From: a virus | Virus genome (UHGV): UHGV-0304279 | Strand: one strand, 5' to 3' | DNA: 53,351 nucleotides | Part shown: positions 1 through 53,351 of the stretch, piece by piece | How the letters are laid out: the number at the start of each line of letters is the position of its first letter | Position numbering within the stretch: position 1 is the first letter of the stretch | Made by a program: the position numbers and the translations under genes | The notes under the pieces: model-generated | The model's database searches: none | What the model saw: the letters and a program-made list of their open reading frames with translations, nothing else | Told to the model about the DNA's origin: nothing

Positions 1-56
1 AATCCATTTTGGTATGATTTAGCGTGATGCAGATCACAAAATTACAAGGTGAGAAA

Positions 57-761
57 ATGCGCAATATACCTACAGAAATGATTATTGATTCCGTCGATGC
101 CGGAGTTGGCGCGGTCATTGACTTGTTCGAACTGGACCTATCGCCACTTGGTGGCGAGGTTATCCGCTTCCATTCCGGTGCAAACGGCTATTACGGCCCT
201 GTTATCTGGAAGGACGTGGCTTACAACAGCTACCCGATCGAGGCTACTGGCTTCGAAATGAAAAACGAAGGCGTTTATTCACGTCCTCAAATGGTTGTAG
301 CCAACATCGGCGGCCTCATTACAGGGATGAATAACGATTTCAACGACCTCAGAGGCATGAAGGTAACGCGCCGCCAGGTGGAGGTAAAATATCTTGACGC
401 CGTTAACTTCCCTAACGGAAACCCCGACGCAGATCCATCTATTGAGGCTGTGTCTTTTTACGTAGTGGAGTCCATGAGCGAAGAAACAGCGGATCAGGTT
501 CAGTATGAACTGTCAACGCCAATTGATGCTGATAAAGCCGTTATCCCTGGTCGCACCATCCTTGCTGACGTTTGCCAGTGGCAATACAGGGGCGATGGTT
601 GCATGTATTCTGGCGGCCCGGTAGCAACGGATAAAGATGTACCGACAAGCGATCCAACGTTAGACAAATGCAGCCACAGATTGAGTGGTTGCCGTTTACG
701 TTTCCCGCGCCCGGCAGCACTGCCTATCTCCTGTTTCCCTGGTTCCAGCAAGGTAGGTTAA
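57..761 (+). CDS. minor tail protein L (lambda gpL-like)
   Basis: Translation aligns by eye with lambda gpL over its length (FLDAVNF, PGR..LA..C.W.YRG..C.YSG, SGC motifs); RBS AAGGTGAG before ATG at 57; the track ORF begins at 24 with a GTG. Confidence 0.85.
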   Translation: MRNIPTEMIIDSVDAGVGAVIDLFELDLSPLGGEVIRFHSGANGYYGPVIWKDVAYNSYPIEATGFEMKNEGVYSRPQMVVANIGGLITGMNNDFNDLRGMKVTRRQVEVKYLDAVNFPNGNPDADPSIEAVSFYVVESMSEETADQVQYELSTPIDADKAVIPGRTILADVCQWQYRGDGCMYSGGPVATDKDVPTSDPTLDKCSHRLSGCRLRFPRPAALPISCFPGSSKVG

Positions 762-6035: not shown

Positions 6036-6085
6036 AATTAAGGGGCCGACTTGTTCGGCCTCAGTTTTATTATGGAGGTGTAATA

Positions 6086-7232: not shown

Positions 7233-7307
7233 TGTCTTATCCTCCATTGTTCCGTCGGTTGTAGTATCCATAAACATCGTTTTCTCAACATTGATATAAA
7301 TCAATAA

Positions 7308-7362
7308 ATACATTTTGTATAAGCCAGAAATGTAACGCAGATCACAAAATGGTAAAATTACC
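7308..7362 (+). promoter_or_regulatory. restart promoter-like region upstream of the tail fibre gene
   Basis: Contains ATACATTTTGTATA and GATCACAAAATGG motif copies plus extended -10-like TGgTAAAAT at 7350-7358. Confidence 0.4.
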
Positions 7363-7391
7363 AGGTTAATTAACATAATGGAGTCATTGCG

Positions 7392-9170
7392 ATGATTTAC
7401 ACAACAGGCACGATAGCCGTTAGCGGAAACACAGTTACCGGAAAGGGGACTGAATTCAACGCCGCATTATCTCTGATCAGAGTTGGTTGCACTCTTATTG
7501 CCATTAGCGATCCGGTGCAAATTTTTTCAATCACAGAGGTAAAAAGCGCAACAAGTTTGTCGGTAACTCCGGCGGCAAGCCCGTCTATTCCGGCTGGGAC
7601 TAAATTTAGCATCCTGCTTTCAGATTCGATCTCTGTGGATGGTCTTGCTCAGGATGTCGCCGAAACACTACGTTACTATCAGGGCAAGGAATCAGAAATA
7701 GCTGACGCCGTAGAATTTTTTAGCGACAACAAGGATGTAATTTCAGCCTCAAAATTAGCGTCAGAATCGGCTACCACTGCAACTAACGCAGCAACAACAG
7801 CGACAACCGCCGCCAATTCAGCAAAGACATACAGAGACGAGGCCCACGAATACGCCAATCAGACGGCGCAGCCTTACGCGTATGTTTTGCAGCCGCTGCC
7901 GGACGTATGGATACCGTTTAATGATTCACTTGATATGCTCACTGGCTACGGCCCTGGCACTAAAAAAGTAACCATTGATGGTGAAGAAAAAACAATATCA
8001 TCAGATAAGGTTGTTTCTTTCTCACGCGCAAGCACTGCGACCTATATCAATAAATCCGGTGTACTCACCACTGCTGATATTGACGAGCCACGTTTCGAAC
8101 GCGAAGGATTATTAATCGAAGGTACGCGCACGAATTACCTGCGCAATTCTAACAATCCAGCATCGTGGCCTATTCATAGCCAATTAACTAAAGAAACGGG
8201 CGCAGACGAAAACGGGTTTAACTATGCGACAGTAACAGTAAGCGACGATCTTGTAGGGACGACAGGCGGTTACACTGTGCATGGCGTAGTTACAGCTGAT
8301 AGATTTGCATTAGCCGCTGGCGAGAGCCTCACACTTTCCGCTCTTTGCCGTGGTACTAATGCACGCTGCCGGGCGCGTATATCAATTATTGTTGATGGAA
8401 CTGATACATTTTCTGCTGACTCTTATTTAAATTTAAATACAGGTGAAGCGTTAGTGTCTGGTGATACTACGCTAATCACTACGAAATCAGAGCAACGTGG
8501 CGATTGGTATTACTTTGAAACAACATACACAGCAAAGGTTGATATAGATGCTGTTAATTGTTCTTTTTATATATCTAACCTGGTAAATGATAGCTTTTAT
8601 TCCGATTCTTCTATGGCATTAGCAACTCCGCAAATCGAGTTAGGTTCTTGCGCATCATCGTTTATTGTATCAGGTGACACTCCAACCACACGAGCAAGCG
8701 ACATGGTAAGCATACCTACTAAGAATAACCTGTTTAAGCCACCATTCAGTTTTTTACTTGAATTACACAAGGAATGGACAACAGCACCAAACGCAGCGCC
8801 TAGAGTATTTGACATTGCAAACGCAAACACAGGGCAAAGTGTTATAGCTGCTATTAACAGAGGTAGCAGTAAATTTTACGTTTCCTTGTCTAACAGTTCT
8901 GGTACTTACATCAATTCTGCCGCTGATTCCGTATTGCCAAGTAAAGCCATTGTTGGTGCGGTAGTTAAAGGTGATGATACTTTTCACGCGATCATGGATG
9001 GTGTGGCGGTTGCAGATACAACATGTTCCTACGGTGGAGTAACTCAAGACAAAAACATCAGATTCGGCGGCCAGGTAGCAGACGGAGCGCGTCACTTGTT
9101 CGGACATATAAGAAATTTTCGTATCTGGCACAAAGCATTAACTGATTCTCAATTAAGCGAAATTGTTTAA
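7392..9170 (+). CDS. side tail fibre protein with C-terminal lectin-like (LamG/ConA-like) domain
   Basis: 592 aa; Ala/Thr-rich fibre-like segment (SESATTATNAATTATTAANSAKTY); C-terminal domain resembles a concanavalin-like lectin fold. Confidence 0.7.
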   Translation: MIYTTGTIAVSGNTVTGKGTEFNAALSLIRVGCTLIAISDPVQIFSITEVKSATSLSVTPAASPSIPAGTKFSILLSDSISVDGLAQDVAETLRYYQGKESEIADAVEFFSDNKDVISASKLASESATTATNAATTATTAANSAKTYRDEAHEYANQTAQPYAYVLQPLPDVWIPFNDSLDMLTGYGPGTKKVTIDGEEKTISSDKVVSFSRASTATYINKSGVLTTADIDEPRFEREGLLIEGTRTNYLRNSNNPASWPIHSQLTKETGADENGFNYATVTVSDDLVGTTGGYTVHGVVTADRFALAAGESLTLSALCRGTNARCRARISIIVDGTDTFSADSYLNLNTGEALVSGDTTLITTKSEQRGDWYYFETTYTAKVDIDAVNCSFYISNLVNDSFYSDSSMALATPQIELGSCASSFIVSGDTPTTRASDMVSIPTKNNLFKPPFSFLLELHKEWTTAPNAAPRVFDIANANTGQSVIAAINRGSSKFYVSLSNSSGTYINSAADSVLPSKAIVGAVVKGDDTFHAIMDGVAVADTTCSYGGVTQDKNIRFGGQVADGARHLFGHIRNFRIWHKALTDSQLSEIV

Positions 9171-9180
9171 GGTGGTTAGC

Positions 9181-14940: not shown

Positions 14941-14958
14941 TATGGCATTACCTCATGT

Positions 14959-16077: not shown

Positions 16078-16206
16078 AACGTTATTCCTCATGTTTACAG
16101 AATGTATATTTATTTTCCGTAAAACGCGCTACAACGCAAAATCCCACCGCGTAACCCACTTGTAAGAGTGCAGTGTCTTTCTTGCGTCAGAGGCGCTATC
16201 AGGTGG

Positions 16207-16440
16207 CTATTTTTTGATTTTTAAGATGACATAAACGTTAGCTTGTTGGCGTCCATGCAATTTACTCCTGCAAATGGCTATTACTCCGGCCTGTTCCAGA
16301 GATCGGATCGCTAGCTTAACACTTTGCCGACTCACTCCCAACCTGTCAGCAAGCATGATAAGTGATATTTGATAACCTCCCGTCCGGCAATGCACAGCCA
16401 GCAGATCGTAAACTTTACGCTCAGTTTTGGTTAATTTCAT
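16207..16440 (-). CDS. small winged-helix DNA-binding protein
   Basis: 77 aa with HTH-like segment LADRLGVSRQSVKLAIRSLEQAGVI. Confidence 0.45.
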   Translation of the reverse strand: MKLTKTERKVYDLLAVHCRTGGYQISLIMLADRLGVSRQSVKLAIRSLEQAGVIAICRSKLHGRQQANVYVILKIKK

Positions 16441-17560: not shown

Positions 17561-17782
17561 AAACATTGGCCTCCTATGGTTAAAATGAACGCGCGGGCGG
17601 GTATCCAATTAGCATTAGATAGCGGTGAGTGACCGCTTAACAGATCCCGCCGTTGCGTGATATTTGTCTTTCGCTTCGCAGCGACACCGGATTTTTAAAG
17701 AGCATGAGGTATGCGCCTTTTTGTGCTATTCCGTTATCTTTTTTCTTGCGTCTTTGCAACTATGGCCTTACCTTGTCTGCAA

Positions 17783-17840
17783 GTTTACAGAATGGAGTTT
17801 TTAGATCAAGACTTGAAAAATACATTTTGTGACTTGTATC
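17783..17840 (+). promoter_or_regulatory. candidate promoter/operator region upstream of the repressor gene
   Basis: Motif copies GTTTACAGAATGG (17783) and TACATTTTGTGAC (17821); -35-like TTGAAA (17811-17816) and -10-like TATCAA (17835-17840). Confidence 0.35.
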
Positions 17841-17868
17841 AAACTTTTTGAGGTTATAGGGTAGCGAC

Positions 17869-18516: not shown

Positions 18517-18522
18517 AAAATT

Positions 18523-18547
18523 AGCCGCCGAATGGCGGCTTTTCTTT
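18523..18547 (+). terminator. rho-independent terminator after the repressor gene
   Basis: AGCCGCC-gaat-GGCGGCT followed by TTTCTTT. Confidence 0.7.
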
Positions 18548-18626
18548 GCCCTGAAAACACCAAAACGTAAACATAAAACGTGTTTTATTATTTAAATATC
18601 AATGACATATAAAATATTTTAAAAAA

Positions 18627-18669
18627 GTATACAAAATGGATTGACTCGGTGTATCACGGGGCGTATATT
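18627..18669 (+). promoter_or_regulatory. candidate sigma70 promoter of the rightward operon with upstream motif copy
   Basis: -35 TTGACT (18641-18646), 17 bp spacer, -10 TATATT (18664-18669); motif GTATACAAAATGG immediately upstream. Confidence 0.5.
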
Positions 18670-18804
18670 TCGAGGCAAAGGAGGTAGCAAGGCAGGGGAA
18701 AGAAGGTTACTTGCTCTTTAACAATCTGGTCAGCCGCTGGAAGTGCGGCAATTAATGAAGATGATTTTTATTAAGTATCATCATGGATATAAGGAGATCA
18801 GATT

Positions 18805-22515: not shown

Positions 22516-22555
22516 ATATACATTTTGTATTGTGGTCGCATATCCGTTTTGTAAG
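22516..22555 (+). promoter_or_regulatory. intergenic motif pair
   Basis: ATATACATTTTGTAT (22516-22530) and CCGTTTTGTAAG (22544-22555). Confidence 0.35.
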
Positions 22556-26049: not shown

Positions 26050-26050
26050 A

Positions 26051-26131
26051 GTTTACAAAATGGCGTCATTGTGTGATGAGGATCACATAATGGCGCTTTG
26101 CACCTTGTTTGCGTGTATCCGTTTTGTATAC
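26051..26131 (+). promoter_or_regulatory. intergenic regulatory region with motif copies and a CRP-like palindrome
   Basis: GTTTACAAAATGGC (26051-26064); TGTGA-N6-TCACA (26072-26087); CCGTTTTGTATAC (26119-26131) with -35-like TTGTTT and -10-like TATACT. Confidence 0.4.
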
Positions 26132-26208
26132 TTCAAACAAACAAAATGCTCTTTAAAAATCCGGTAACGCTGAAATGCGTAGAAATCACCTGAAAAGGAG
26201 AGAGCATT

Positions 26209-27421: not shown

Positions 27422-27587
27422 AGATCTGCAAATAGATATTCAGCGCGCCGAGCGTGATTTAGAGACAGTCAGACAAATCCAGGCTTTTCACATGCGAGAA
27501 TTACTTGCGCTGAAAGAGCTTGAAAGAAAACTGGTGCAATCAATTTCTGATCGTAAACGACTGGCGGCGCGTTACTGGAGCAAATAA
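27405..27587 (+). CDS. hypothetical coiled-coil protein
   Basis: ATG 27405 with RBS GGGGTGA. Confidence 0.4.
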   Translation: MKNEIKDLQIDIQRAERDLETVRQIQAFHMRELLALKELERKLVQSISDRKRLAARYWSK

Positions 27588-28309
27588 TGAATTTAGAATC
27601 AATTCTAAAATTCCACTTTCCCAAATCACCGCGATTATCAGACGAAAGCCGGGGAACATCACCTGACGCACTTAATACTACGGATGCGCTTACCGCCGCT
27701 GGTATGGCGCAATCGCGCGTAGCGCTTGGTTACAGCGCTTTTTTGGGGAAGATGGAGCTATCGCAAGCAGAAAAACACAGGGCCGTAGTTTTGCTTACAG
27801 AGCGTTTAAGAGCTATGGCAAAAGATTACGAATACGTCATGGAACTGGAGGAGAGCCAGCGCAATGATTTTATTATTCTTGTTGCCGTTTTCGCGTTTCG
27901 GGATTATTGCCAAAGCGCCGCGACGGAAAAAACTTGTATGGAGTGCGGCGGATATAAATTTACGTTTGACGAATACGGAGAAAAACACCTTTGCAAAAAA
28001 TGCAAGGGGCACGGGAAAGTTCGCAATCATTGTAAACAATGCAAGGGGCGCGGCGAGATACCGGATAAAACAGCCAGCAATGCGGCAGAAATGCCAGTCT
28101 TCAAAACGTGCCGGCACTGTGGCGGGCGCGGGTACTCGCGTTTCCCGGTAGATCTCGTCCGGCAGGCTGTTAACCAGCTTGTTTTCCCGGTAAGCCGATC
28201 AACATGGTGGAAGAAATACAGGGTTTTCTATGAGGACGCCATAGCGGAGCTATTCAAAGAAGAAGCCCGCGCAGAAAGCGAAATCAAGCGAGTGACACGG
28301 GGTGAATAA
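27587..28309 (+). CDS. putative antitermination protein Q-like / DnaJ-type zinc-finger protein
   Basis: Four CxxCxGxG repeats (CMECGGYK, CKKCKGHG, CKQCKGRG, CRHCGGRG); follows the nin/rusA genes where lambdoid Q lies. Confidence 0.45.
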   Translation: MNLESILKFHFPKSPRLSDESRGTSPDALNTTDALTAAGMAQSRVALGYSAFLGKMELSQAEKHRAVVLLTERLRAMAKDYEYVMELEESQRNDFIILVAVFAFRDYCQSAATEKTCMECGGYKFTFDEYGEKHLCKKCKGHGKVRNHCKQCKGRGEIPDKTASNAAEMPVFKTCRHCGGRGYSRFPVDLVRQAVNQLVFPVSRSTWWKKYRVFYEDAIAELFKEEARAESEIKRVTRGE

Positions 28310-32577: not shown

Positions 32578-32596
32578 ATGTGATCTACTTCTCAAA

Positions 32597-32640
32597 GTAT
32601 ACAAAATGGCATTGTTCCTGCAGTGCCGTTTTGTTATATA
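32597..32640 (+). promoter_or_regulatory. intergenic motif pair with promoter-like hexamers
   Basis: GTATACAAAATGGC (32597-32610), -35-like TTGTTC, CCGTTTTGTTATATA (32626-32640). Confidence 0.4.
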
Positions 32641-34602: not shown

Positions 34603-34699
34603 CCACGGATACTGGCGCAAGGTTGGTGATTTGTAACCATAATCGCACATAAAAAACAAATAGATTAAAATATTTCCTAACAATGCGAAATTGTAATTA

Positions 34700-34721
34700 C
34701 CCGGCCACGTGCCGGGTTTTT
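34700..34721 (+). terminator. terminator-like hairpin immediately upstream of the lysis cassette (candidate tR'-like element)
   Basis: CCCGGC-cacgt-GCCGGG followed by TTTTT. Confidence 0.55.
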
Positions 34722-36169: not shown

Positions 36170-36712
36170 ATGGCTAAGGCTAAAGGCATTAAGTTGCCTC
36201 ACTTCAAGATCCCGCTCTTTGAGCATACCACTGTTTTCTTTTGCCCGACCCGCGAGATGTTCTATGAATTTTGCGAAAAGGCAGGAATTCCAATTGAACC
36301 TGATTTCGAACTGGCAGGCGGCCTGACACTCACTTGCACTGGTGAGAAAGGCGGTAACTTCTACGTGATCGCAGTGTTCGACAATGAGTTAGGAACGCTG
36401 GTGCATGAAGCGGCGCACACTACGTTTCACGTATTAAGTGATGTAGGTGTCGTGGCTACCACGGATCCTACCCATCCGGCGAATGAGACTTACGCTTACA
36501 TGGTAGGCCGTATCTTCGATGTATTTTTCCCTATCCTGACAGAATCAAACGAAGCACAGGTTGCAGAAATGCAGGCAGCAGAAGTCGTCGATCAGGCACT
36601 GGAGCAAACAGAACAGCCGAAGGAAGAAGAAAAACCCGCGAAGAAAGGCAAACGTAAGCCGAAGTCAAAAGAGGCATATGTACCGCGTGTAATGAGCTTT
36701 AAGCGAGGCTGA
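36170..36712 (+). CDS. hypothetical protein with HExxH zinc-metallopeptidase-like motif
   Basis: LVHEAAHTTFH with a downstream Glu (NETYAYM); Lys-rich C-terminal tail. Confidence 0.45.
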   Translation: MAKAKGIKLPHFKIPLFEHTTVFFCPTREMFYEFCEKAGIPIEPDFELAGGLTLTCTGEKGGNFYVIAVFDNELGTLVHEAAHTTFHVLSDVGVVATTDPTHPANETYAYMVGRIFDVFFPILTESNEAQVAEMQAAEVVDQALEQTEQPKEEEKPAKKGKRKPKSKEAYVPRVMSFKRG

Positions 36713-36714
36713 TT

Positions 36715-36810
36715 ATGGATGAATGCATCATCGCCGGATTAATTGGTATTTCTGTATTTCTGGTGAGTTTTATTATTGCCGTGCTGATAACCGTAAAGAG
36801 TAAATTATGA
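36715..36810 (+). CDS. mini-gene 1 of tandem array: hydrophobic peptide (31 aa)
   Basis: MDECIIAGLIGISVFLVSFIIAVLITVKSKL; RBS GAGG. Confidence 0.45.
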   Translation: MDECIIAGLIGISVFLVSFIIAVLITVKSKL

Positions 36811-36881
36811 ACACATACGATCTCATCTGGTTATTGGTGCTCATCGTAGGTATTTGTGTGAACATTTACAGGCTATGGTGA
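36807..36881 (+). CDS. mini-gene 2: hydrophobic peptide (24 aa)
   Basis: MNTYDLIWLLVLIVGICVNIYRLW; ATGA overlap with the upstream stop. Confidence 0.45.
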   Translation: MNTYDLIWLLVLIVGICVNIYRLW

Positions 36882-36885
36882 AAAT

Positions 36886-36960
36886 ATGATTGACCCGCTT
36901 ATTATCCTTTCTGCCTGCGTCGCTGTATGGCTGGCGATCATGATATTCATTGAAAGCTAA
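36886..36960 (+). CDS. mini-gene 3: hydrophobic peptide (24 aa)
   Basis: MIDPLIILSACVAVWLAIMIFIES; RBS GGTGA. Confidence 0.45.
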   Translation: MIDPLIILSACVAVWLAIMIFIES

Positions 36961-36970
36961 AGGCATCAAC

Positions 36971-37045
36971 ATGAATATTTACGATCTCATCTGGTGGTCA
37001 TTGGTCGCCGTCATTATCTATTTCTGGTGGAAGAATGTTGTATAG
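36971..37045 (+). CDS. mini-gene 4: hydrophobic peptide (24 aa)
   Basis: MNIYDLIWWSLVAVIIYFWWKNVV; RBS AAGG. Confidence 0.45.
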   Translation: MNIYDLIWWSLVAVIIYFWWKNVV

Positions 37046-37053
37046 GTGAAAGC

Positions 37054-37134
37054 ATGAACGCATACGAAATGCTATTGCTGGTGGCTGTAGTTGTAGTTAT
37101 TGCCGTGGATGTATACCGGGAGATTAAAAAATGA
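37054..37134 (+). CDS. mini-gene 5: hydrophobic peptide (26 aa)
   Basis: MNAYEMLLLVAVVVVIAVDVYREIKK; RBS GGTGA. Confidence 0.45.
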   Translation: MNAYEMLLLVAVVVVIAVDVYREIKK

Positions 37135-37199
37135 AATGGCTTGATTTCTTTTTCCTGATCGTTGCGATTGTTATTACCATGACTGCGCTAACTCAATAG
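37131..37199 (+). CDS. mini-gene 6: hydrophobic peptide (22 aa)
   Basis: MKWLDFFFLIVAIVITMTALTQ; ATGA overlap. Confidence 0.45.
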   Translation: MKWLDFFFLIVAIVITMTALTQ

Positions 37200-37207
37200 G
37201 TGAGCGA

Positions 37208-37282
37208 ATGAACGCTATTGATATTATGTTGATCGTGTGTACCGTTGCGTTATTTATTGTCGGAGTGATTATCAATGTCTGA
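37208..37282 (+). CDS. mini-gene 7: hydrophobic peptide (24 aa)
   Basis: MNAIDIMLIVCTVALFIVGVIINV; RBS GGTGAG. Confidence 0.45.
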   Translation: MNAIDIMLIVCTVALFIVGVIINV

Positions 37283-37343
37283 CAGCGATTTTTTAATCAT
37301 GGCTACATGCACGTTGTTAGTAGTTATCGTTTTCTTCGCATAA
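37275..37343 (+). CDS. mini-gene 8: hydrophobic peptide (22 aa)
   Basis: MSDSDFLIMATCTLLVVIVFFA; RBS GGAG. Confidence 0.45.
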   Translation: MSDSDFLIMATCTLLVVIVFFA

Positions 37344-37353
37344 AGGTTAAGCA

Positions 37354-37437
37354 ATGAAAGAGCTATTTGACTGGTTGGAAGTATTAACATACTGCGCAAG
37401 TTTTGTTGCTTGCGTATATATCATCAATAAATATTGA
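37354..37437 (+). CDS. mini-gene 9: hydrophobic peptide (27 aa)
   Basis: MKELFDWLEVLTYCASFVACVYIINKY; RBS AAGG. Confidence 0.45.
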   Translation: MKELFDWLEVLTYCASFVACVYIINKY

Positions 37438-37447
37438 GAGGTGAATT

Positions 37448-37933
37448 ATGGCCCGCACTAAAAATGCAAAAGCTGACGACAAAAAGCCAGCCGCTAAAAA
37501 GGTGGGCCGTCCGCATGGTTATACCGAAGAAAAAGCGTTAGAGATCTGCGAACTGGTAGCGGACGGTCAGAGCGTTAATAAAATATCGAAAATGCCCGGT
37601 ATGCCTACCCGCACCACGATCTTAAAATGGTTTCGTGATGTGCCTGAATTTTCTGTCATGTACGCGCGCGCGAAAGAAATCGGCTTTGAGGTATTGGCTG
37701 ATGAAATCATCGACATAGCTGATGATGCTAAAAACGCTGATAAAGACCAATTGCGCCGACACCAACTGATGATTGAAACCCGCAAGTGGCTACTGGCAAA
37801 ACTCCAGCCGCGCAAATACGGCGAACGCGTTACACAGGAGATTGTAGGTAACAAGGAAGAAGCACCAGTACAGGTTGCAGTCACAAAAGAGGAGATTGCT
37901 CGCATCGTCCAGGAAGTAGAAGACGAGGTGTGA
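37448..37933 (+). CDS. terminase small subunit
   Basis: HTH-containing N-terminus (GRPHGYTEEKALEICELVADGQSVNKI), position directly upstream of the large terminase; RBS GAGAGGTG. Confidence 0.75.
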   Translation: MARTKNAKADDKKPAAKKVGRPHGYTEEKALEICELVADGQSVNKISKMPGMPTRTTILKWFRDVPEFSVMYARAKEIGFEVLADEIIDIADDAKNADKDQLRRHQLMIETRKWLLAKLQPRKYGERVTQEIVGNKEEAPVQVAVTKEEIARIVQEVEDEV

Positions 37934-46889: not shown

Positions 46890-47567
46890 ATGATTCATGT
46901 TCGGACCGGGCAATTTGCGGCGGTGGTAGACGGTAGGCGGTATGTGTTTAATCCCTGCTTCGCCGCGATGGCAAAAATAGGCAGTGACAGAGAACTGGTC
47001 GAATATTTCGCAACAATCCACGGCGGCAAATATCCATCACGCTTGCCAGCAGACCCAGACTTACGCAATCGCATTCTGGCGCGGTGTTATGGTGAAATAG
47101 TGCAGACATCAATGCACATCCTGAAATGTTGCTCAGACGATGAAATAGGCCCGTTATTGGGCGAGTGTAGGTTTACTCCTTCGGGCAAGTTGCGACTAAA
47201 ACCAGGCTTGATGCCTACTGACGACGTTATCACGCTGGCGCAGCATTGCGTGTACCACGGCTTAATCGGTGATGGGCCGGAAGAAGATGCCGGAGAAATC
47301 CCGGAAGGGGAATATAAACCGACTTTTAACGTCCTTGAATTCGTCTATTCTGCCGTTGCTCACCTGGGCTTGTCAGAATCGGAAGCATGGAATATGACAA
47401 TGACCGGATATAGGGCCACTGTACGCGCTAAAACGCCGCCAGACGAAAGAAGCGAAAGAAGTAAGCCAAACGTTCACATAAATAAACGTGCTTATGACGA
47501 GCAAATGGAGGCCGCTAAAAAGGCGCTAAAAAGAATGGAAAATCGCAAGCAAGAAAAAGCCCGGTAG
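46890..47567 (+). CDS. tail assembly chaperone (gpG-like)
   Basis: Position immediately upstream of the tape measure region; acidic segment; Lys-rich C-terminus; no frameshift partner found. Confidence 0.55.
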   Translation: MIHVRTGQFAAVVDGRRYVFNPCFAAMAKIGSDRELVEYFATIHGGKYPSRLPADPDLRNRILARCYGEIVQTSMHILKCCSDDEIGPLLGECRFTPSGKLRLKPGLMPTDDVITLAQHCVYHGLIGDGPEEDAGEIPEGEYKPTFNVLEFVYSAVAHLGLSESEAWNMTMTGYRATVRAKTPPDERSERSKPNVHINKRAYDEQMEAAKKALKRMENRKQEKAR

Positions 47568-47582
47568 ATCCGGGCGTTTGTC

Positions 47583-47996
47583 TTATTTGATTCTAACAAT
47601 ATCAATAAAACCGTTACCTAAATCGACAATTGCGTGATTTTTTGCGCCAGCGCCGCCTTCATTAAAAATTCTTTCAGCGAAAGCAACTTTATTTGCTTTA
47701 CACTCGTTAGCTATCCTGTTTTTTATTTCGCTATTGTTTTCAAAGACTACGCTTACAGCAGCCTCGTTTACAAGGCCATAATTAAACCAACGAGCATAAA
47801 CTGGTTTACCTTCAAAATTTTTATCAATTGCCTTAAAAAGAATTGTGGGTGCGACTGGTTCTTTTTTGATCATGTCGTGATATGCGGCTACATGGTTTGC
47901 CACTTCTTCACAGTTAATGTTTATGGCCTCGTTAGCGTTCGCGTTAAATGCCAGTGCAGCAATCACAGCAAGTACCATTTTTGCTAACCGTTTCAT
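47583..47996 (-). CDS. secreted protein (moron) with N-terminal signal peptide
   Basis: MKRLAKMVLAVIAALAFNANA signal peptide; antisense to the tail operon; bidirectional hairpin at 47555-47582. Confidence 0.55.
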   Translation of the reverse strand: MKRLAKMVLAVIAALAFNANANEAININCEEVANHVAAYHDMIKKEPVAPTILFKAIDKNFEGKPVYARWFNYGLVNEAAVSVVFENNSEIKNRIANECKANKVAFAERIFNEGGAGAKNHAIVDLGNGFIDIVRIK

Positions 47997-48247
47997 AATT
48001 AACCCCTGTAATTATTCTGATTTGCTAAATGCTTCCTTTAACTTAGTTATACACGCATATTGTTTATTTTTTAAGTGCTTTTAACATTTCTTCGATAAGG
48101 TCCGCATAGCGTTCATATTCGTTGGGACGGTAGTTTACGTTTCTCATTTTCTTATCCTCTTTCACTTCCTCCGGGACATCCGGCCTTCCTGCATCTCTTC
48201 TATCTTTCTCTACATCATCTATACAAAACGGTATCGTTAAAATAAAG

Positions 48248-48288
48248 ACATTTTGTATAAAATAGATACATAGATCACATTTTGCATG
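48248..48288 (+). promoter_or_regulatory. restart promoter-like region upstream of the tape measure gene
   Basis: ACATTTTGTATAA with -10-like TATAAA, then GATCACATTTTGCATG; RBS GAGG before ATG 48299. Confidence 0.4.
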
Positions 48289-48298
48289 AGGTTAAATC

Positions 48299-50638
48299 AT
48301 GGCTACCAGTGTAGGTACAATTTATTACGAAGTTGACGCAAAAACAGGACAACTTCTTGTAGCACAACGACAGGCAGACCAAGCCTTTGACCGTATAGAG
48401 CGCGGTGCTAAACAGGCCGATCGCCAGGTAAACACACTGAAAACATCAATCAAAGCACTGACCAGGGTTATCCATCTGCTAATTGCTGCCGAGGCCGTTA
48501 GACAGTTTATGGAAATGGCAGAGCAGGCCAAAATGCTACGCGTCAAAATCAAAATGCTGACAGGCAACGCGGAATCTGCCGGGCGGGTTTTTGATGGTCT
48601 GAAAGAAATATCCAGGGAGACGGGGCAGAGCCTGAAAGATACTGGCGAATTATGGCAAGGCCTGGCTATCTCACTAAAAAACACCTCCGCTACGGAAGGG
48701 CAATTGCTTAACCTGGTTGGCACCATTCAGAAGATGGGCGCGTTAGGGGGCGCGTCAGCAGAGCAAATGTCAAACTCTATGCGCCAGTTCCGACAGTCTA
48801 TTGACGGCGGCGTACTTCGCGCAGAAGAATTCAACAGCTTGCTTGAAAATACGCCGACCATCGTACAAACAATGGCCCGCAAGATGGGATTATCAATGGG
48901 CCAGTTCCGCGCCGAAATGCTGGACGGCAAGATCACGGCAGAGAGGATGGTTAACGCAATCCAGGCGGCTACGCAGGAAACAAACGAGCAGTTCGCACAG
49001 TTGCCGCGCACATCCGGCATGGCTATCAATGAACTAAAAGTCGAGGTAATGGGTCTGGTGGAACAACTGGACGATCTTTTCGGTGTATCAGATGGCGTAG
49101 TCTCAGCTATCGACTTGATCACAAAAGGAGTTAATGGGCTAGGTGAGGGCGCTAAATTCGCTAAAACCTGCTTTGATACGCTCAAAACGGCTGGTAGCGA
49201 ATTCATCGACATGTTTGATGATGTGGCTGTGAAGGCTGGCGAGGTGGCAGAGAAGATCATCGCAATGGTGACGCCAATCAAGGCGCTAATGGATGGCTAT
49301 AAATGGATGAAAGAGATTGTCGATGAACGCAAGGAAGAACTAAACAGCAACAACGAGAAAAAATTTGGCCCTACCATCGGTAAATTCATGACGTTTAAAA
49401 ACGACATTGAAAAGGCGACCGCCGCTTATGACGAGCTTATGCAGAAACAGGCAGAAGCCAACGACGGAGCTATTACCGGATTCGATAAGCCAGTTGATAA
49501 GCCGAAAAAACAGAAAAAAGAGAAGAAATCGGAAGCTGATCGGCTTGGAGACAAGGGCATAAGCGTTTCTGATCAGTACAACAAAGACGCCGCCGCCATG
49601 CGCAAAGCGTTAGAGAACGGCAAGGCCATTGATGCTGCGTTCGCCCAGGGTAAAATCACACTCCTTGAGTACCGCGCCGCGCAAAAAGGGATCGGCAAGG
49701 AACTGAAAGAAGAATTAGCGCAGATCCCGGTAGATGAATTGCGTGATAAATGGTCGCAAATAGTTAGCCCAATGGACCAGCTAAAAGGCGAAGTTGACCC
49801 TATCCAGCAGGCGCAAAATGAATGGGCCGTCCGTAAGCAAATGCTTATCGACCTGGGCGCTACAGAAGCACAACAGAAACAGGAATTATTAGCCTATGAG
49901 CAGCAGATCCGCGATCTGAAGTGGGAACAGTGGCAGGCGCAAAGCCAGACAAACGGCCTGATCGGTGATTGCGTTAATGGCCTTAAAGGTGGCATGAGCA
50001 ATGCGCTTGTTGGCCTGCTTAACGGTACTCAATCATTGAGCGATGTTTTTGCTAACTTAGGCAGCAATATACTTGGGAATATCGGTAACAGACTTTCGGA
50101 CATAGCTGCCAACTGGATAGCAGATCAAATCATGATGGAGACACAAAGCAAAGCCACGCAGGCCAGCACAACGGCAAGCGCGGTTGCCGCTCAGGGAAGC
50201 ATTGCGGCGGCGGCGGCCCCGGCGGCGGCAGCGACAGCGGCATCAACTGGCGGTAGCTGGGCGGCGGCTGGCTCGGCGGCGCTTACTGCGATCATGTCGC
50301 TGGCAACATCCATTTTCGGCGGCGGGCGCTTTAATGGTGGTAGCGTAATTGGTGGCAATATGTACCGCGTCGGGGAACATAACAGGCCGGAGCTATTCCA
50401 GACGTCTAACGGCAACCAATACATGATCCCCGGCGAGAATGGCAGGGTTATCCCGGGGCGTGATATTGGCGGCGGCGGCGGTATCAGTATGCCTGTTTAC
50501 ATCGACATTCAAACCACAAACGGATTTAGTGACGAAGACAGCCGCAGACTTGAACAGACAATGGAACGTGTAGCCATGAAAATGATAACAAGGGAATCGC
50601 AAAGACCTGGCGGGATGTTGCAACCGCGCCGCAAATAA
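48299..50638 (+). CDS. tail tape measure protein
   Basis: 779 aa, helical N-terminal two thirds, Gly/Ala-rich C-terminal region; position. Confidence 0.85.
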   Translation: MATSVGTIYYEVDAKTGQLLVAQRQADQAFDRIERGAKQADRQVNTLKTSIKALTRVIHLLIAAEAVRQFMEMAEQAKMLRVKIKMLTGNAESAGRVFDGLKEISRETGQSLKDTGELWQGLAISLKNTSATEGQLLNLVGTIQKMGALGGASAEQMSNSMRQFRQSIDGGVLRAEEFNSLLENTPTIVQTMARKMGLSMGQFRAEMLDGKITAERMVNAIQAATQETNEQFAQLPRTSGMAINELKVEVMGLVEQLDDLFGVSDGVVSAIDLITKGVNGLGEGAKFAKTCFDTLKTAGSEFIDMFDDVAVKAGEVAEKIIAMVTPIKALMDGYKWMKEIVDERKEELNSNNEKKFGPTIGKFMTFKNDIEKATAAYDELMQKQAEANDGAITGFDKPVDKPKKQKKEKKSEADRLGDKGISVSDQYNKDAAAMRKALENGKAIDAAFAQGKITLLEYRAAQKGIGKELKEELAQIPVDELRDKWSQIVSPMDQLKGEVDPIQQAQNEWAVRKQMLIDLGATEAQQKQELLAYEQQIRDLKWEQWQAQSQTNGLIGDCVNGLKGGMSNALVGLLNGTQSLSDVFANLGSNILGNIGNRLSDIAANWIADQIMMETQSKATQASTTASAVAAQGSIAAAAAPAAAATAASTGGSWAAAGSAALTAIMSLATSIFGGGRFNGGSVIGGNMYRVGEHNRPELFQTSNGNQYMIPGENGRVIPGRDIGGGGGISMPVYIDIQTTNGFSDEDSRRLEQTMERVAMKMITRESQRPGGMLQPRRK

Positions 50639-50644
50639 CACTAA

Positions 50645-50670
50645 GGCCGCTATAAGCGGCCTTTATTTTA
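50645..50670 (+). terminator. bidirectional terminator between the tape measure gene and the antisense cassette
   Basis: GGCCGC-tataa-GCGGCC followed by TTTATTTT. Confidence 0.65.
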
Positions 50671-50955
50671 CATGGTAAGGATATAAATTAAACAGCACAG
50701 GAATGCGGGCGCGGCGAAGTCGCAAACGCTAGCCATATTCCATGCTTTTGGTAAAAAACCACCATACCACGGCATTCTTTCTCGTTTCCCTCCGCAAAAT
50801 TCCGCTATGTAACGATATTCAGCCTGTGTGTGTTCCCGTGCAAAAAAGAATGTACATCCAATCAGGCCGCCAGTGAGATAATCACCAGTAAGCAGGCCGA
50901 TAACAACCTGTATAGTCGCCGCAGCCAGTGCGTGACCAATAACGGTTAAATCCAT
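50668..50955 (-). CDS. small membrane protein (moron)
   Basis: Two or three hydrophobic segments; RBS GGGAGG. Confidence 0.5.
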   Translation of the reverse strand: MDLTVIGHALAAATIQVVIGLLTGDYLTGGLIGCTFFFAREHTQAEYRYIAEFCGGKRERMPWYGGFLPKAWNMASVCDFAAPAFLCCLIYILTM

Positions 50956-50957
50956 CG

Positions 50958-51143
50958 TTAATCCTCCCGATCGTTCTCAAATGTGCCATCTACAAATTTT
51001 TGCAGCCCGGCGATAAGTTGTGTTGCCTGCGATTTTTCAATTACTATGGTTTCAGTCCCCATAAGTTCGGTTATCCACAGCCGACCATCCTCATCAAGAT
51101 CTAACCTAACTCCGTAACATAACTCTGTTTCGTCAATAATCAT
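50958..51143 (-). CDS. hypothetical acidic protein (moron)
   Basis: 61 aa ORF coupled to the downstream membrane protein gene. Confidence 0.4.
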   Translation of the reverse strand: MIIDETELCYGVRLDLDEDGRLWITELMGTETIVIEKSQATQLIAGLQKFVDGTFENDRED

Positions 51144-51253
51144 TTTTCATCCTATAATCTTCCGTTACGTGCGACGTAACCCCCTGCCGAACATCACTAA
51201 CCAGATGTTCCAGATCTCCCGCTAGGTATATTTCTCCTCCTCCATATTCCACC

Positions 51254-51508
51254 TCACTTATGAGCGCCTTTCACTCCGCAATGACGGTTGTATTCCAGGT
51301 GATCGATAATTAACCAAATATTCAAATCTTCACTGAACAGCCGCCAGTCAGGATTGATATCGAATTTAAAGCCATAACCATCACGTAATTTTTTGGGGCG
51401 GGCTTCTTTTTTCAGGAAGGCGTTAAGCAACTTCTTGCCTTTCTTGATTACCCGTTCCTGTGCATTCTTTTGTGCTTTCAGGTTTTTTTCGATAGTTACC
51501 AGTTTCAT
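51254..51508 (-). CDS. hypothetical basic protein (moron), possible toxin-like partner
   Basis: 84 aa, Lys-rich N-terminus; RBS GGGGTGAG; lies 17 nt downstream of a 51 aa ORF. Confidence 0.45.
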   Translation of the reverse strand: MKLVTIEKNLKAQKNAQERVIKKGKKLLNAFLKKEARPKKLRDGYGFKFDINPDWRLFSEDLNIWLIIDHLEYNRHCGVKGAHK

Positions 51509-51525
51509 AACTCACCCCATCGTCC

Positions 51526-51681
51526 TTAGTTAAGCGCCCTCAGGAAGAAATCCCGGTATTCATCATCCTTCGCGTTCATCATGAATTGACCGTATTTGAA
51601 TGCGTCGTCGAAACCCTTAACAATTGCTACTTCCACTTGCTCGAATGCGTTGTTTAGCATCACTACTACATAGCTACTCAT
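51526..51681 (-). CDS. hypothetical small protein (51 aa), first gene of the antisense cassette
   Basis: MSSYVVVMLNNAFEQVEVAIVKGFDDAFKYGQFMMNAKDDEYRDFFLRALN; RBS GTGAGG. Confidence 0.4.
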   Translation of the reverse strand: MSSYVVVMLNNAFEQVEVAIVKGFDDAFKYGQFMMNAKDDEYRDFFLRALN

Positions 51682-51754
51682 TTTTGGGCCTCACTTGCTG
51701 GTACCGCTTTTCTTCTTGCTTCCTGTATACGGCTTGTTGCTTCATGTGTGAATA

Positions 51755-51837
51755 CATATTGTAAACTAGCTATAATTCTTGTGACGAATATCTCATTTTT
51801 CGCGTAGAAGCGCGTAAAGATATATACAAAATGTAAC
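51755..51837 (+). promoter_or_regulatory. restart promoter-like region upstream of the gpM-like gene
   Basis: ATACATATTGTAAAC (51755-51769), perfect -10 TATAAT (51771-51776), ATATACAAAATGTAAC (51822-51837). Confidence 0.45.
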
Positions 51838-51851
51838 TTACAGGAGGGGGT

Positions 51852-52205
51852 ATGCCGGAAGTGTTCAGATGGACACCACAGAGAAGCTACAGCGTAAACA
51901 GTGAGCCTAACGTGTCCGTTATCAAGCTGGGCGATGGCTATGAACAGCGCCAGACAAAAGGGATTAATCCACTACTTGACAGCTATACGCTGGTCTTTAA
52001 AGGTACGAGCGCCGGATGCGGTGACGCCGGAAACGTGGCGCTCCAGGTTGACGCATTTTTAAGAGCACGTTGCGCGGTCGAGGCGTTTTACTGGACGCCA
52101 TCTACAGACGGAGTGAAAAGGCTTTTTGTATGCCGAAAGTGGAGCATGGCGAAAGACGGCCCGGTATGCACTCTGAATGCAACGTTTGAACAAGTTATCA
52201 ATTAA
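51852..52205 (+). CDS. minor tail protein M (lambda gpM-like)
   Basis: Resembles lambda gpM end to end (FRW.P, GDGY.QR, FLWTP, C.KWS, F.AEFEQV.N); RBS AGGAGGGGG. Confidence 0.8.
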   Translation: MPEVFRWTPQRSYSVNSEPNVSVIKLGDGYEQRQTKGINPLLDSYTLVFKGTSAGCGDAGNVALQVDAFLRARCAVEAFYWTPSTDGVKRLFVCRKWSMAKDGPVCTLNATFEQVIN

Positions 52206-52218
52206 TGGAGAAGTCAAT

Positions 52219-52404
52219 ATGTATGCTATTTGTGTAGTTGACCGCACGGGCGCTTTTACATTATTTGACGACTATGAAATCAAAGATCTTACCGTAAAGG
52301 CTGACAATGGCGAGATCTGGTATCTTCATGACGTTGGTGACGGGTATGTTGGGTGCAGGTCGAGAGAGGGAAGGGAAGTTTTATTTTTGGTTGATAGCGT
52401 ATAA
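52219..52404 (+). CDS. hypothetical protein
   Basis: RBS GGAGAAG. Confidence 0.4.
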   Translation: MYAICVVDRTGAFTLFDDYEIKDLTVKADNGEIWYLHDVGDGYVGCRSREGREVLFLVDSV

Positions 52405-52504
52405 ACACGACCCCGCGCGAAGCGGGGTTTATAGTGTCGATAGCAGAATGCATAACAATCCAATAATGATAATAATCATCTCCAGAACGTAATGTTCGCA
52501 CATC

Positions 52505-52753
52505 TCATAACGCCCCCTTCAAATATGTCAATCCCTTATCAGTGACGAATGAATGGTTTACCTGGTTTTCATCCGTCATGATGATGAATAACTTTTCCTG
52601 TAGGTATTTCGCTTTTGGGTACAGCGTTAAACAGACCTGGTACAAAACCCCGCGCTCAATCAGCAAATCAATAAATTCGTGCTCATGATAACCGATAAGG
52701 CGGGCGGCCTGTTTCAACGTGTACACATAGCCACCGTGATTGCGCCGCGTCAT
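52505..52753 (-). CDS. hypothetical protein (moron; possible HTH)
   Basis: RBS AAGGTGG. Confidence 0.45.
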   Translation of the reverse strand: MTRRNHGGYVYTLKQAARLIGYHEHEFIDLLIERGVLYQVCLTLYPKAKYLQEKLFIIMTDENQVNHSFVTDKGLTYLKGAL

Positions 52754-52762
52754 ATTGCCACC

Positions 52763-53113
52763 TTATTTGCCGAACGCTCCCAGGTTGTCGATACAGAAAT
52801 CTTTTGCCGCTTTTTCGTATTCACGTTTTGCTTGCGGATCATCTGCCGGGAAACCTTTTGCGTGTATTTCACCAGGACAAGCCTGATCCATAGAGTTGGC
52901 AAAATTAACATTGAAGTTAACATTAATATCTTTCGGGTTCATATCTTCCACCTCATCTGGTATTTGCACCGGAACAACCACAAAATCACGCGCACTAGAC
53001 CAACAACGCAGCAATTCACGACCATCATCACGCGCGGCGTTGTATGTATCGAATAACCCTATGCGCTCCCATTCGCATTTATCAGTGAACACCTCTAATC
53101 TGTATTTTTGCAT
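52763..53113 (-). CDS. hypothetical protein (moron)
   Basis: ATG 53113 with RBS AAGGGTAG. Confidence 0.4.
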   Translation of the reverse strand: MQKYRLEVFTDKCEWERIGLFDTYNAARDDGRELLRCWSSARDFVVVPVQIPDEVEDMNPKDINVNFNVNFANSMDQACPGEIHAKGFPADDPQAKREYEKAAKDFCIDNLGAFGK

Positions 53114-53117
53114 AATG

Positions 53118-53297
53118 CTACCCTTCATTTATTGGCCTGATCCGGTAGCCGATAATGCGGCTATCTTTCTCCATAAGTTCAAAAGCCGTATCTATAGCAT
53201 CATCAGGATTATCGAAATCAGACGTTATGTTTTCATTTCCAGTCATGAAAACCGTAAGCCTCCATAACTTACCGCCGCCATTGCTGCATCGCGCCAT
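53118..53297 (-). CDS. hypothetical protein (moron)
   Basis: ATG 53297 with RBS GGAGGT. Confidence 0.4.
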   Translation of the reverse strand: MARCSNGGGKLWRLTVFMTGNENITSDFDNPDDAIDTAFELMEKDSRIIGYRIRPINEG

Positions 53298-53351
53298 TTT
53301 GTTTACCTCCATTCGTTTGAGTAAAATATACATATTGTAAAAACCGCGATC
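53293..53351 (+). promoter_or_regulatory. motif-containing region at the window end, continuous with positions 1-56 upstream of the gpL-like gene
   Basis: GCCATTTTGTTTAC and ATATACATATTGTAAAA here; CCATTTTGGTATG and GATCACAAAATT at 4-43. Confidence 0.35.

Follow-up and report, generated by a model that had tools for sequence, protein, structure and literature searches.

What allows a tail operon of the lambda kind to hold, between its own genes, operons that run the other way? The question is raised by the virus genome UHGV-0304279, a stretch of 53,351 nucleotides (nt) that we shall call the window, in which a sequence-only reading had recognized four minus-strand cassettes (47583-47996, 50668-51681, 52505-53297 and 6993-7232) among the tail genes. 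It took them for morons, each followed by a region from which tail transcription would restart, and it left the choice between repeated acquisition and a modular design. All four cassettes are present in the lists of open reading frames (ORFs) and in their translations. We consider it probable, short of firmly so, that the window displays a modular layout common to the whole mEpimmI group of phages, with four fixed slots in the tail operon and divergent promoter regions shared between each cassette and the tail gene that follows it. Dedicated docking sites for accessory genes would thus be able to persist inside an essential operon of a phage lineage.

Four occupied slots in the tail operon

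The tail region of the window is 81-87% identical, at the DNA level, to that of Escherichia phages MagusPhagus, mEp554, mEp044, mEp010, mEp021 and mEp515 (79% for mEp013, over a short stretch only), the gene order is that of MagusPhagus and the mEp phages, and among 5426 complete E. coli genomes, 35 have prophages up to 95% identical to the tail region. Because its CI-like repressor, Rep, is 98% identical to Rep021 and its N-like protein 94% identical to Gp17, both of mEp021, the window phage can be counted as a member of the mEpimmI (mEp021) group of temperate E. coli phages published by Negrete-Mendez et al. 2025 (PMC11893012). Members of this group share one immunity, and Rep is 92-100% identical among them.

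To compare the slots, IMG/VR was scanned with the protein encoded at the tail-chaperone position, which gave 75 loci; those in which this protein is at least 80% identical, ~45 loci, make up the close clade. In every one of them the intervals between the chaperone-position gene and that of the tape measure protein (TMP), between TMP and M, and between M and L are filled with genes (gaps of 650-2540, 685-1570 and 1200-1890 nt), with the exception of L052 (IMGVR_UViG_3300045988_076424, 13235-13367), where a natural deletion has removed the M/L cassette, the terminator and the small gene that follows M: the stop codon of M lies there 132 nt from L, and the control region R3, described below, is intact. 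Minus-strand genes occupy the same slots in MagusPhagus, mEp021, mEp554 and three E. coli prophages. The cargo itself varies. For slot 1 (chaperone-position gene/TMP) at least seven alternative gene sets were counted, and in many relatives a TagO-like protein is encoded there; slot 2 (TMP/M) combines a conserved promoter-proximal pair, encoding a protein of 51 amino acids (aa) and a ParE-like protein, with variable distal genes; in slot 3 (M/L) the genes of KilAC, a 116-150-aa protein and a 57-80-aa protein form a conserved core, to which extras may be added; and slot 4 (J region/fibre) holds Cor here, a different lipoprotein and gp80 in mEp021, both on the minus strand. In a sister clade, where the chaperone-position protein is ~40% identical and M and L are 61-71% identical, the chaperone, TMP, M and L genes are contiguous, with hairpin and T-run terminators at the chaperone/TMP junction and immediately before L; in one member, L058, the chaperone/TMP and M/L junctions carry an insertion.

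Since the same slots are found in all close relatives with varying cargo, and the sister clade is contiguous, we may understand the slots as junctions close to a terminator, which in the mEpimmI lineage came to be occupied permanently, a modular arrangement which argues against four recent independent acquisitions. Of the two possibilities that had been left open, it is the modular one that the relatives uphold, and the sister clade, with its uninterrupted operon, offers a clean comparison of the states before and after.

It could be objected that the minus-strand ORFs are chance reading frames or artefacts of annotation, and the motif described below an artefact of composition. This view, which would fit with the lack of a known function for most of the cassette proteins, is scarcely credible. 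Purifying selection is seen in every cassette family, always on the minus strand, with ratios of nonsynonymous to synonymous change (pN/pS) of 0.07-0.34 across ~45 related loci, and because of this the ORFs are to be taken as genuine protein-coding genes. Furthermore, Cor, the ParE-like and the KilAC proteins match curated families, lipoproteins at slot 4 exclude phages experimentally in mEp021 and mEp010 (PMC11893012), and the motif is enriched over shuffled sequence in which dinucleotides are preserved. Motif enrichment, the match of Cor to NF047972 and the pN/pS values together refute the objection.

What do the cassettes encode? The secreted-looking 137-aa orphan of slot 1 had no match in Pfam, PHROG, PADLOC or NCBIfam, its homologues are E. 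coli hypothetical proteins only, and its AlphaFold2 model (helical, pLDDT 83) met no match in a fold search of the PDB. The four proteins of cassette 2 belong to phrog_29810, phrog_1525, phrog_13627 and phrog_1443 (pN/pS 0.07-0.22). The 95-aa product is a membrane protein, and the 84-aa product contains a ParE-like toxin domain (PF24732 ParE_like, 9e-11, 42 bits against a cut-off of 24.4), its RefSeq relatives being named 'ParE family toxin-like protein'. The conserved 51-aa gene immediately upstream, in the same operon, is a candidate partner, and its product fell into no known antitoxin family of Pfam, PHROG or PADLOC. In cassette 3 (phrog_29559, phrog_38567 and phrog_5689; pN/pS 0.12-0.28) the 82-aa protein matches the ANT/KilAC domain (PF03374, 4.5e-6, 27.4 bits against a cut-off of 25.3); a Gifsy-type antirepressor module under SOS control was ruled out, as a search for LexA boxes came back empty. 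The N-terminus of Cor, MKGFKNIAIAAMVAGMVGC, has the cysteine and the hydrophobic region, with a methionine at -3 that departs from the pattern [LVI][ASTVI][GAS]C of PMC11893012. The remaining cassette proteins fall into PHROG families without known function, and PADLOC recognized no known defence-system protein among the cassette genes. In mEp021, gp80 and gp81 (locus L203, 5842-6995) combine the exclusion lipoprotein with a minus-strand gene of 311 aa whose annotation is that of a virion structural protein; with this annotation, the antisense slots are not filled solely with non-structural cargo. The slots are a natural place to seek new exclusion, toxin and anti-repressor functions, in a phage group common in the human gut.

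Should these cassettes be named morons? A moron, as conceived by Juhala, Hendrix and their colleagues, is extra DNA with its own promoter and terminator, of sporadic distribution, and expressed from the repressed prophage. Extra DNA between genes that are adjacent in relatives is indeed what is found, the sister clade being contiguous and the gaps of the close clade filled. As for signals of their own, three of the four cassettes end at a predicted hairpin and there are conserved leftward -35/-10 candidates, with promoter scores no better than those of shuffled sequence. Sporadic distribution is seen in slot 1, in slot 4 and in the distal genes of slots 2 and 3. The name is thus appropriate for slot 1, with its allelic alternatives at the position of HK97 gp15, and for slot 4, with Cor. 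It does not suit the cores of slots 2 and 3, which, being shared by most of the close relatives that were compared, are neither recent add-ons nor classic morons.

The lambda-like order of the tail genes, also put forward by the sequence-only reading, stands for TMP, M, L, J and the fibre, which are matched by PHROG family (Table 1); the chaperone role of the DUF6246 protein is assigned from its position only. The same reading had been silent on terminators. At three of the four convergent junctions a two-way hairpin terminator is predicted (47559-75, 50643-63 and 52410-28); at slot 4, where cor and the upstream gene overlap by 4 nt, a hairpin was looked for and none found. Another hairpin terminator follows J (6042-6062), and the interval from J to the fibre gene (6042-6996) contains two plus-strand genes, of phrog_557 ('outer membrane protein') and phrog_425 ('membrane associated protein, moron'), so that same-strand accessory genes are carried there besides the antisense cor.

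Control regions between cassettes and tail genes

Each cassette is followed, in the direction of tail transcription, by ~100-170 nt of conserved non-coding DNA (R1 to R4, Table 1). The similar regions that had been reported there, with the motif, a -10-like hexamer and a Shine-Dalgarno (SD) sequence, are found in all four places. Over the 100 nt that precede TMP, M and L, the pairwise difference is 0.15, 0.18 and 0.09, to be compared with a pS of ~0.40 in those genes, which amounts to an evolution two to four times slower. Conservation starts at the motif even beside an unrelated cassette (in L007, and at slot 4 of mEp021), and it singles out hexamers that are invariant amid varying bases in 31-37 unique sequences: TATAAT before M, TGGTATGAT before L and TATAAA before TMP. 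In R1, 32 unique relatives show little or no variation in the blocks TTTATACAAAAT, CATTTTGTATAAAATAGA, GATCACA and ATGAGGTTAAATCATG. In R2, the invariant TATAAT (51771-51776) has GTGAAK 17 nt upstream and is accompanied by a palindrome that resembles sites of the host regulator CRP (TGTGACGAATATCTCA, 51780-51795; 36 unique relatives). R3 displays on its minus strand TTGATC-17-TATATT, with its -10 at 53330..53325 and both hexamers invariant in 31 unique relatives; the half-sites of its CRP-like palindrome are likewise invariant around a variable spacer. R4, compared with a single relative, mEp021, is conserved from the motif to the fibre start though the cassette differs, and TGGTARAAT is common to both. 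In R1 to R3 two outward-facing -10-like hexamers stand 38-39 bp apart (48218/48256, 51724/51762 and 53325/53364), a spacing found again at the early promoter PR (18626/18664) and at 32596/32635. R2 also contains, before M, a tandem 10-nt direct repeat (CGCGTAGAAG/CGCGTAAAGA, 51801-51820), retained in nearly all of the 36 unique relatives with changes only in the last 3-4 bases of the first unit, which may provide another site for a protein or form a small hairpin.

From these features we infer that the R regions act as back-to-back divergent promoter regions, leftward for the cassette and rightward for the next tail gene, so that they would be at least as much promoters of the leftward cassettes as restarts for the tail genes. 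The whole arrangement may then be pictured as follows. Each of the four slots would accommodate an accessory operon transcribed leftward, whose 3' end runs up against the preceding tail gene, the junction being marked in slots 1 to 3 by a two-way intrinsic terminator, and whose 5' end shares the conserved 100-170 nt with the next tail gene. One -10 of the sigma-70 type would drive the cassette, while the other, 38-39 bp away in R1 to R3, would face the next tail gene, itself provided with a strong ribosome-binding site (RBS). The motif (CCATTTTGTAWA, or ATACA-TTT-TGTAT) is placed immediately upstream of, or over, the -10, in most cases with a CRP-like palindrome, and because these elements are common to the regions a joint control of the promoters is probable, exerted by a DNA-binding protein, with Rep as leading candidate, and possibly by host CRP. 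In the lytic cycle, tail genes would probably be expressed both by read-through from a promoter before the lysis genes, antiterminated by Q, and from the internal promoters. The polymerase modified by Q should pass the antisense cassettes as well as the internal hairpins, hairpins being presumably passed in the sister clade too, and the rightward promoters would probably add to this read-through, for example by offsetting the head-on conflict with cassette transcription. Cargo, finally, would be exchanged by recombination between the conserved flanks.

How tail genes can be expressed across convergent transcription units is indeed the question that this layout raises, and there is a simpler answer to it. 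The control regions might serve the leftward cassettes only, the tail genes being expressed solely from one late transcript antiterminated by Q, and the look of a restart would be an illusion due to a cassette promoter that adjoins the next RBS. We hold this rather unlikely, while recognizing how much it accounts for. A Q antiterminator of the lambda family is encoded (Table 1), and with such proteins RNA polymerase transcribes past terminators for tens of kb (PMC9388147), so that read-through of the tail genes is feasible; hairpins lie inside the uninterrupted tail operon of the sister clade, which would make read-through the ancestral state; among the sigma-70 matches of the tail region the clearest is leftward; and a candidate promoter, pause and terminator precede the lysis genes. 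The latter candidate is conserved in mEp021, where its hairpin is annotated TERM_5 and where terminator t5 was experimentally shown at the same position (PMC11893012). Similarity begins only 12 nt upstream of the -10, and the cassette, ~6.4 kb downstream of the Q gene, is devoid of a conserved -35 or Q-binding stretch; it may be a late promoter in an arrangement like that of lambda PR'. What a purely leftward function would not explain is why the rightward -10 hexamers should be invariant in 30-37 unique relatives when their neighbours vary (TATAAT before M, TGGTATGAT before L), why TGGTARAAT should be kept before the fibre gene, why conservation should run unbroken from the motif to each tail gene start, or why R3 should be kept in L052 despite the loss of its cassette. 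Of the internal promoters implied by the sequence-only reading, what stands is that the regions are conserved and promoter-like; the single read-through message that would have contradicted them is, given Q, compatible with the sequence.

The control regions and terminator flanks might also be, in the main, recombination linkers for the swapping of cassettes, devoid of regulatory role. The allelic replacement seen in slot 1 between conserved flanks, the high mosaicism of the cargo, and the similarity of L007 to the window, which starts right at the motif, what lies to the left being unrelated, would all be expected of linkers. Yet linkers need similarity, not invariant hexamers separated by variable spacers, conservation is far above that of the flanking coding DNA, and the motif is also present where nothing is swapped (PL, nutR2), which makes a linker function alone improbable.

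Table 1. Positions of the genes, predicted terminators and candidate control elements discussed (window numbering)
Feature	Position	Strand	Details
Minor tail protein L	57..761	+	phrog_18
K, I and J genes	after L, up to 6035	+	J: phrog_31
Cassette 4: Cor superinfection-exclusion lipoprotein, 79 aa	6993..7232	-	NCBIfam NF047972 (equivalog), 55.8 bits against a cut-off of 31; phrog_1119, 5e-23
R4	7233..7391		palindromic motif ATACATTTTGTATA 7308-7321; CRP-like TGTAACGCAGATCACA 7331-7346; extended -10 TGGTAAAAT 7350-7358; SD GGAG
Tail fibre / tail tip protein	7392..9170	+	phrog_1419, 1e-166
PL / repressor-upstream region	17784..17843		motif 17784-17797 (minus, over -10-like TAAACT of candidate PL) and 17820-17833; CRP-like TGTGACTTGTATCAAA 17828-17843
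PR region	18626..18669		leftward motif 18628-18641 abutting TTGACT-17-TATATT, best sigma-70 match in the window
Module before nutR2	26050..26132		leftward motif 26054-26063; perfect TGTGATGAGGATCACA 26072-26087; rightward CCGTTTTG + TATACT 26119-26132; same in mEp021
Q antiterminator, lambda Q family	27587..28309	+	PF03589 (Q-lambda family, PMC9388147), 1e-28
Module between Q and lysis genes	32579..32640		TGTGATCTACTTCTCA; leftward motif 32600-32609; rightward CCGTTTTGT + TATATA
Candidate late promoter cassette	34666..34717	+	-10 TAAAAT 34666-34671; -10-like AACAAT 34679-34684 (7 nt later); hairpin 34699-34717; holin start 34742
Gene at tail-chaperone position, DUF6246, 225 aa	46890..47567	+	phrog_791, function unknown; RefSeq relatives 'DUF6246 family protein'; last gene before slot 1
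Predicted bidirectional hairpin terminator, chaperone-position gene / cassette 1	47559..47575	both	GCCCGGTAGATCCGGGC then T-rich tails; both strands scored
Cassette 1 gene, secreted-looking orphan, 137 aa	47583..47996	-	pN/pS 0.17
Added candidate ORF, 27 aa, promoter-proximal in cassette 1	48064..48147	-	strong RBS AAGAGGA; start region conserved in relatives; read from sequence
R1	48148..48298		leftward motif + -10-like TATAGA 48218-48231; rightward ACATTTTG + TATAAA 48246-48261; GATCACA half-site 48273-48279; SD GAGG, TMP start
TMP	48299..50638	+	phrog_1538, E 6e-152
Predicted bidirectional hairpin terminator, TMP / cassette 2	50643..50663	both	AAGGCCGCTATAAGCGGCCTT; both strands scored
Cassette 2, four genes	50668..51681	-	51 aa 51526-51681; 84 aa 51254-51508; 61 aa 50958-51143; 95 aa 50668-50955
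R2	51682..51851		leftward -10-like TATACA 51724-51729; motif ATACATATTGTAAACT 51752-51767; second motif copy 51823-51836; SD GGAGG
Minor tail protein M	51852-52205	+	phrog_14
Small gene after M, 61 aa	52219-52404	+	phrog_3249
Predicted hairpin terminator, M unit / cassette 3	52410..52428	-	minus strand scored; mEp021 counterpart annotated as terminators on both strands
Cassette 3	52429..53297	-	59 aa 53118-53297; 121 aa 52763-53128; 82-aa KilAC 52505-52753; possible 24-aa hydrophobic ORF 52429-52503
R3, first part	53298..53351		continues at 1-56 across the window junction; motif ATACATATTGTAAA 53328-53341
R3, second part	1..56		CCATTTTGG + TATGAT extended -10, 4-18; CRP-like CGTGATGCAGATCACA 23-38; SD AAGGTGAG

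A motif distributed over the genome

The motif CCATTTTGTAWA occurs in about 20 copies, in intergenic control regions throughout the genome and often beside CRP-like palindromes. Allowing at most two mismatches, ATACATWTTGTAWA has 15 matches where 2.6 are expected, a number that none of 100 dinucleotide-preserving shuffles reached; CCATTTTGTA, with at most one mismatch, has 19 for 5.7 expected. With few exceptions the matches fall between genes, many of them beyond the tail region. The core, ATACA-TTT-TGTAT, is palindromic (5-3-5), and many copies add to it a common asymmetric extension, CCATTTTGTAWACTT. Head-tail loci of the close clade contain 5.8 copies per 10 kb, against 0.5-0.7 in the sister and distant clades, and mEpimmI contigs are the only ones in IMG/VR with several exact copies each. 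The idea that the motif is a signature of tail restarts has therefore to be abandoned, as copies are also found at the PL region, beside PR, before nutR2 and at other junctions of the early region: it appears to be a lineage-specific regulatory element of the whole genome. That it is a general feature of host promoters is unlikely, multicopy contigs being mEpimmI only and its density in the sister clade below expectation. An element bound by Q is unlikely as well, as the motif is missing from the core of the candidate late promoter and present at early promoters. Recognition at the RNA level, through start-stop mini-ORFs or an RBS-proximal element, is not favoured either, the presence of both orientations pointing to DNA.

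In the PL region the motif copies are conserved in 26 unique relatives; in the PR region motif, -35 and -10 are invariant around a variable spacer, the motif at 18628 being so, with its adjoining A-run, in 33 unique relatives. Further copies are found at 17874, after the N-like gene at 19094, at 22517/22544 and at 32600/32624, and mEp021 has the same motif modules at homologous places. Three boxA-like sequences (GCTCTTTAA...), at 17690-17704 (minus strand), 18712-18730 and about 26148-26160, match nutL, nutR1 and nutR2 of mEp021. Each of these nut sites is downstream of a motif-bearing module, and because such a module lies upstream of it, nutR2 may have its own promoter. The leftward motif next to PR comes with a -10-like TATACT (18631..18626) that faces a two-way terminator after the repressor gene (18523-18540); a minus-strand non-coding transcript of ~95 nt would result between PR and rep (18520-18631). 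At 14958-14971 and 16094-16107 (minus strand) the motif is followed by CATGAGG, an SD sequence, before the helicase gene and a 372-aa gene of the PL operon, and the TAA of the copy at 14958 is the stop codon of the upstream gene. Between two inverted copies, TGGCATTGTTCCTGCA (32607-32622) resembles the -24/-12 element of sigma-54 promoters (TGGCAC-N5-TTGCA), and is probably a by-product of the inverted repeat.

Which protein would bind this element? Rep is the leading candidate, and a more specific proposal, compatible with the layout described above, is that this CI-like protein binds the ~20 dispersed sites and thereby silences PL, the internal tail promoters and others in the lysogen. We hold it as possible, though less likely than not. 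A palindromic 5-3-5 core is appropriate for a dimeric helix-turn-helix (HTH) protein; the motif is the sole repeat common to both sides of rep, and the dominant one there (17784, 17820, 17874 and 18628); the members of the group have in common one immunity, a Rep 92-100% identical and the motif, which is missing from the tail regions of the sister clade; and the operators of Rep are undescribed in the mEpimmI literature. As a candidate operator for the repressor of mEp021, the motif is concrete and open to test. Other binders do worse. A 77-aa winged-helix protein (16207-16440) was rejected as accessory and missing from mEp021, which has in its place, in the early-left operon, a 495-aa protein with zinc-ribbon repeats (mEp021 7737-9224); gp14, the product of an HTH gene of mEp021 (mEp021 10615-10860), was rejected as missing from the window. 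The search for another conserved DNA-binding regulator found none, and the 20 ORFs between Q and the lysis genes, among which a late activator was sought, are all of unknown function. A search of the whole window against Rfam met no known RNA family.

The palindrome TGTGA-N6-TCACA, on its side, may point to the host. Six intergenic sites with at most one mismatch, one of them perfect, accompany the motif, for a rough expectation of ~0.1 in ~4 kb of intergenic DNA; over the whole window the total is not enriched (25 against 19). Among relatives the half-sites are conserved and the spacers variable, and the extended sequence GTGAT....ATCACA resembles the CRP consensus. Assuming that transcription starts ~7 nt downstream of each predicted -10, the predicted leftward starts would have such a site ~61.5 bp upstream for cassette 3 and ~41.5 bp upstream for cor, the classic positions for activation by CRP. 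This makes activation of cassette 3 and cor by CRP a lead, not a result. As an operator of Rep the palindrome was rejected, there being none at PR and one weak copy near PL. We may combine these views into a distributed regulon, which would replace the single late tail operon of the lambda style: a lineage-specific element of 13-16 nt at ~20 promoters, with PL, the internal tail promoters and those of the antisense operons among them, bound by the CI-like repressor, with CRP sites tying the accessory operons to the carbon status of the host. Such a combination is doubtful. Were it true, we would have an enterobacterial siphovirus in which repressor sites spread over the genome directly control structural genes, and the operators of Rep021 would be defined.

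Several facts weigh against the scheme, in its general form or in the part given to Rep. Generic sigma-70 and terminator scans, and a position weight matrix of our own, found no enrichment of promoter-like hits: the leftward candidate of R3 has the second-best sigma-70 score in the window (12.8), and shuffles reach similar scores, so that the promoter calls are founded on conservation, not on score. A processive Q makes internal tail promoters not strictly needed. The distance from the motif to the best -10 differs between regions, and in R2 the motif sits in the spacer of the invariant TATAAT. The copies at 14958, 16094 and 51823 are only 2-10 nt from an SD sequence, too near for any promoter of the next gene, and the leftward copies in the rightward early operon (18628, 26054 and 32600) have no obvious gene to drive. 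At PR, which a repressor must silence, the motif is found only beside the -35 and not over the core (centre at about -42), a position typical of activation; promoters of cassettes expected to be active in the lysogen, such as that of Cor, carry the motif too; and many copies are made asymmetric by their extension. In about a third of relatives, finally, the right half of the CRP-like site of R2 is degenerate.

Far from these elements, 36712-37448 is a stretch of ~740 nt without any ORF of at least 70 aa, directly upstream of the gene of the small terminase, and possibly a cos/packaging region.

Comparison with known systems

Accessory transcription units within a tail operon are already known as a kind, morons in tail operons being textbook knowledge, and the phage group itself is published. 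Four identically built and fixed antisense slots in one operon go further. The paper on the mEpimmI group (PMC11893012) describes the same gene order as in the window and the same three boxA/nut regions; it mentions neither antisense cassettes, morons, internal promoters or control regions, nor the motif, and treats the operators of the repressor as unknown. As far as the accessible literature shows, a fourfold antisense architecture with shared control regions and a genome-wide motif is undescribed.

One near likeness is with HK97, whose gp15 has an exclusion-type function expressed from the prophage. This gene was the first moron ever named (Juhala et al. 2000). It stands between the gene of the tail chaperone and that of the tape measure (PMC3594210, Cumby et al. 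2012), a position identical to that of slot 1. Unlike HK97, the window has four slots in one operon, all antisense, each with a conserved shared control region and three of them with a two-way terminator, and its slots 2 and 3 hold genes conserved throughout the group instead of sporadic add-ons. In the same way cassette 4, whose product is a Cor equivalog (NF047972) encoded among the distal tail genes, recalls the cor genes of the lambdoid phages phi80, N15, HK022 and mEp167, with the difference that it is here one of four similarly built antisense units, with a promoter region that contains a group-specific motif and a CRP-like site.

With the late operon of lambda the window has in common a Q of the same family, the order of tail genes and a candidate promoter, pause and terminator before the lysis genes; it differs in that the Q gene lies ~6.4 kb from the candidate late promoter, and in that convergent units are found within the tail operon, together with internal terminators and candidates for internal promoters. 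Morphogenetic genes distributed in several units, each with a similar element for one regulator, bring to mind, in their logic only, the late regulons of P2 (Ogr) and Mu (C). Here, however, the search found no activator of the Ogr, C or Lpa type, and the element, which also marks early promoters, is at or next to the -10, and not at -55 or from -30 to -55. The stoperators of mycobacteriophage L5, bound by the gp71 repressor, offer a parallel for a motif that might be recognized by Rep: they are many short intergenic sites all along a genome, structural regions included, as are the ~20 candidate repressor sites of the window. Those of L5 are asymmetric and orientated with transcription, whereas the motif has a palindromic core and is found in both orientations, with the copies at 18628, 26054 and 32600 set against local transcription.

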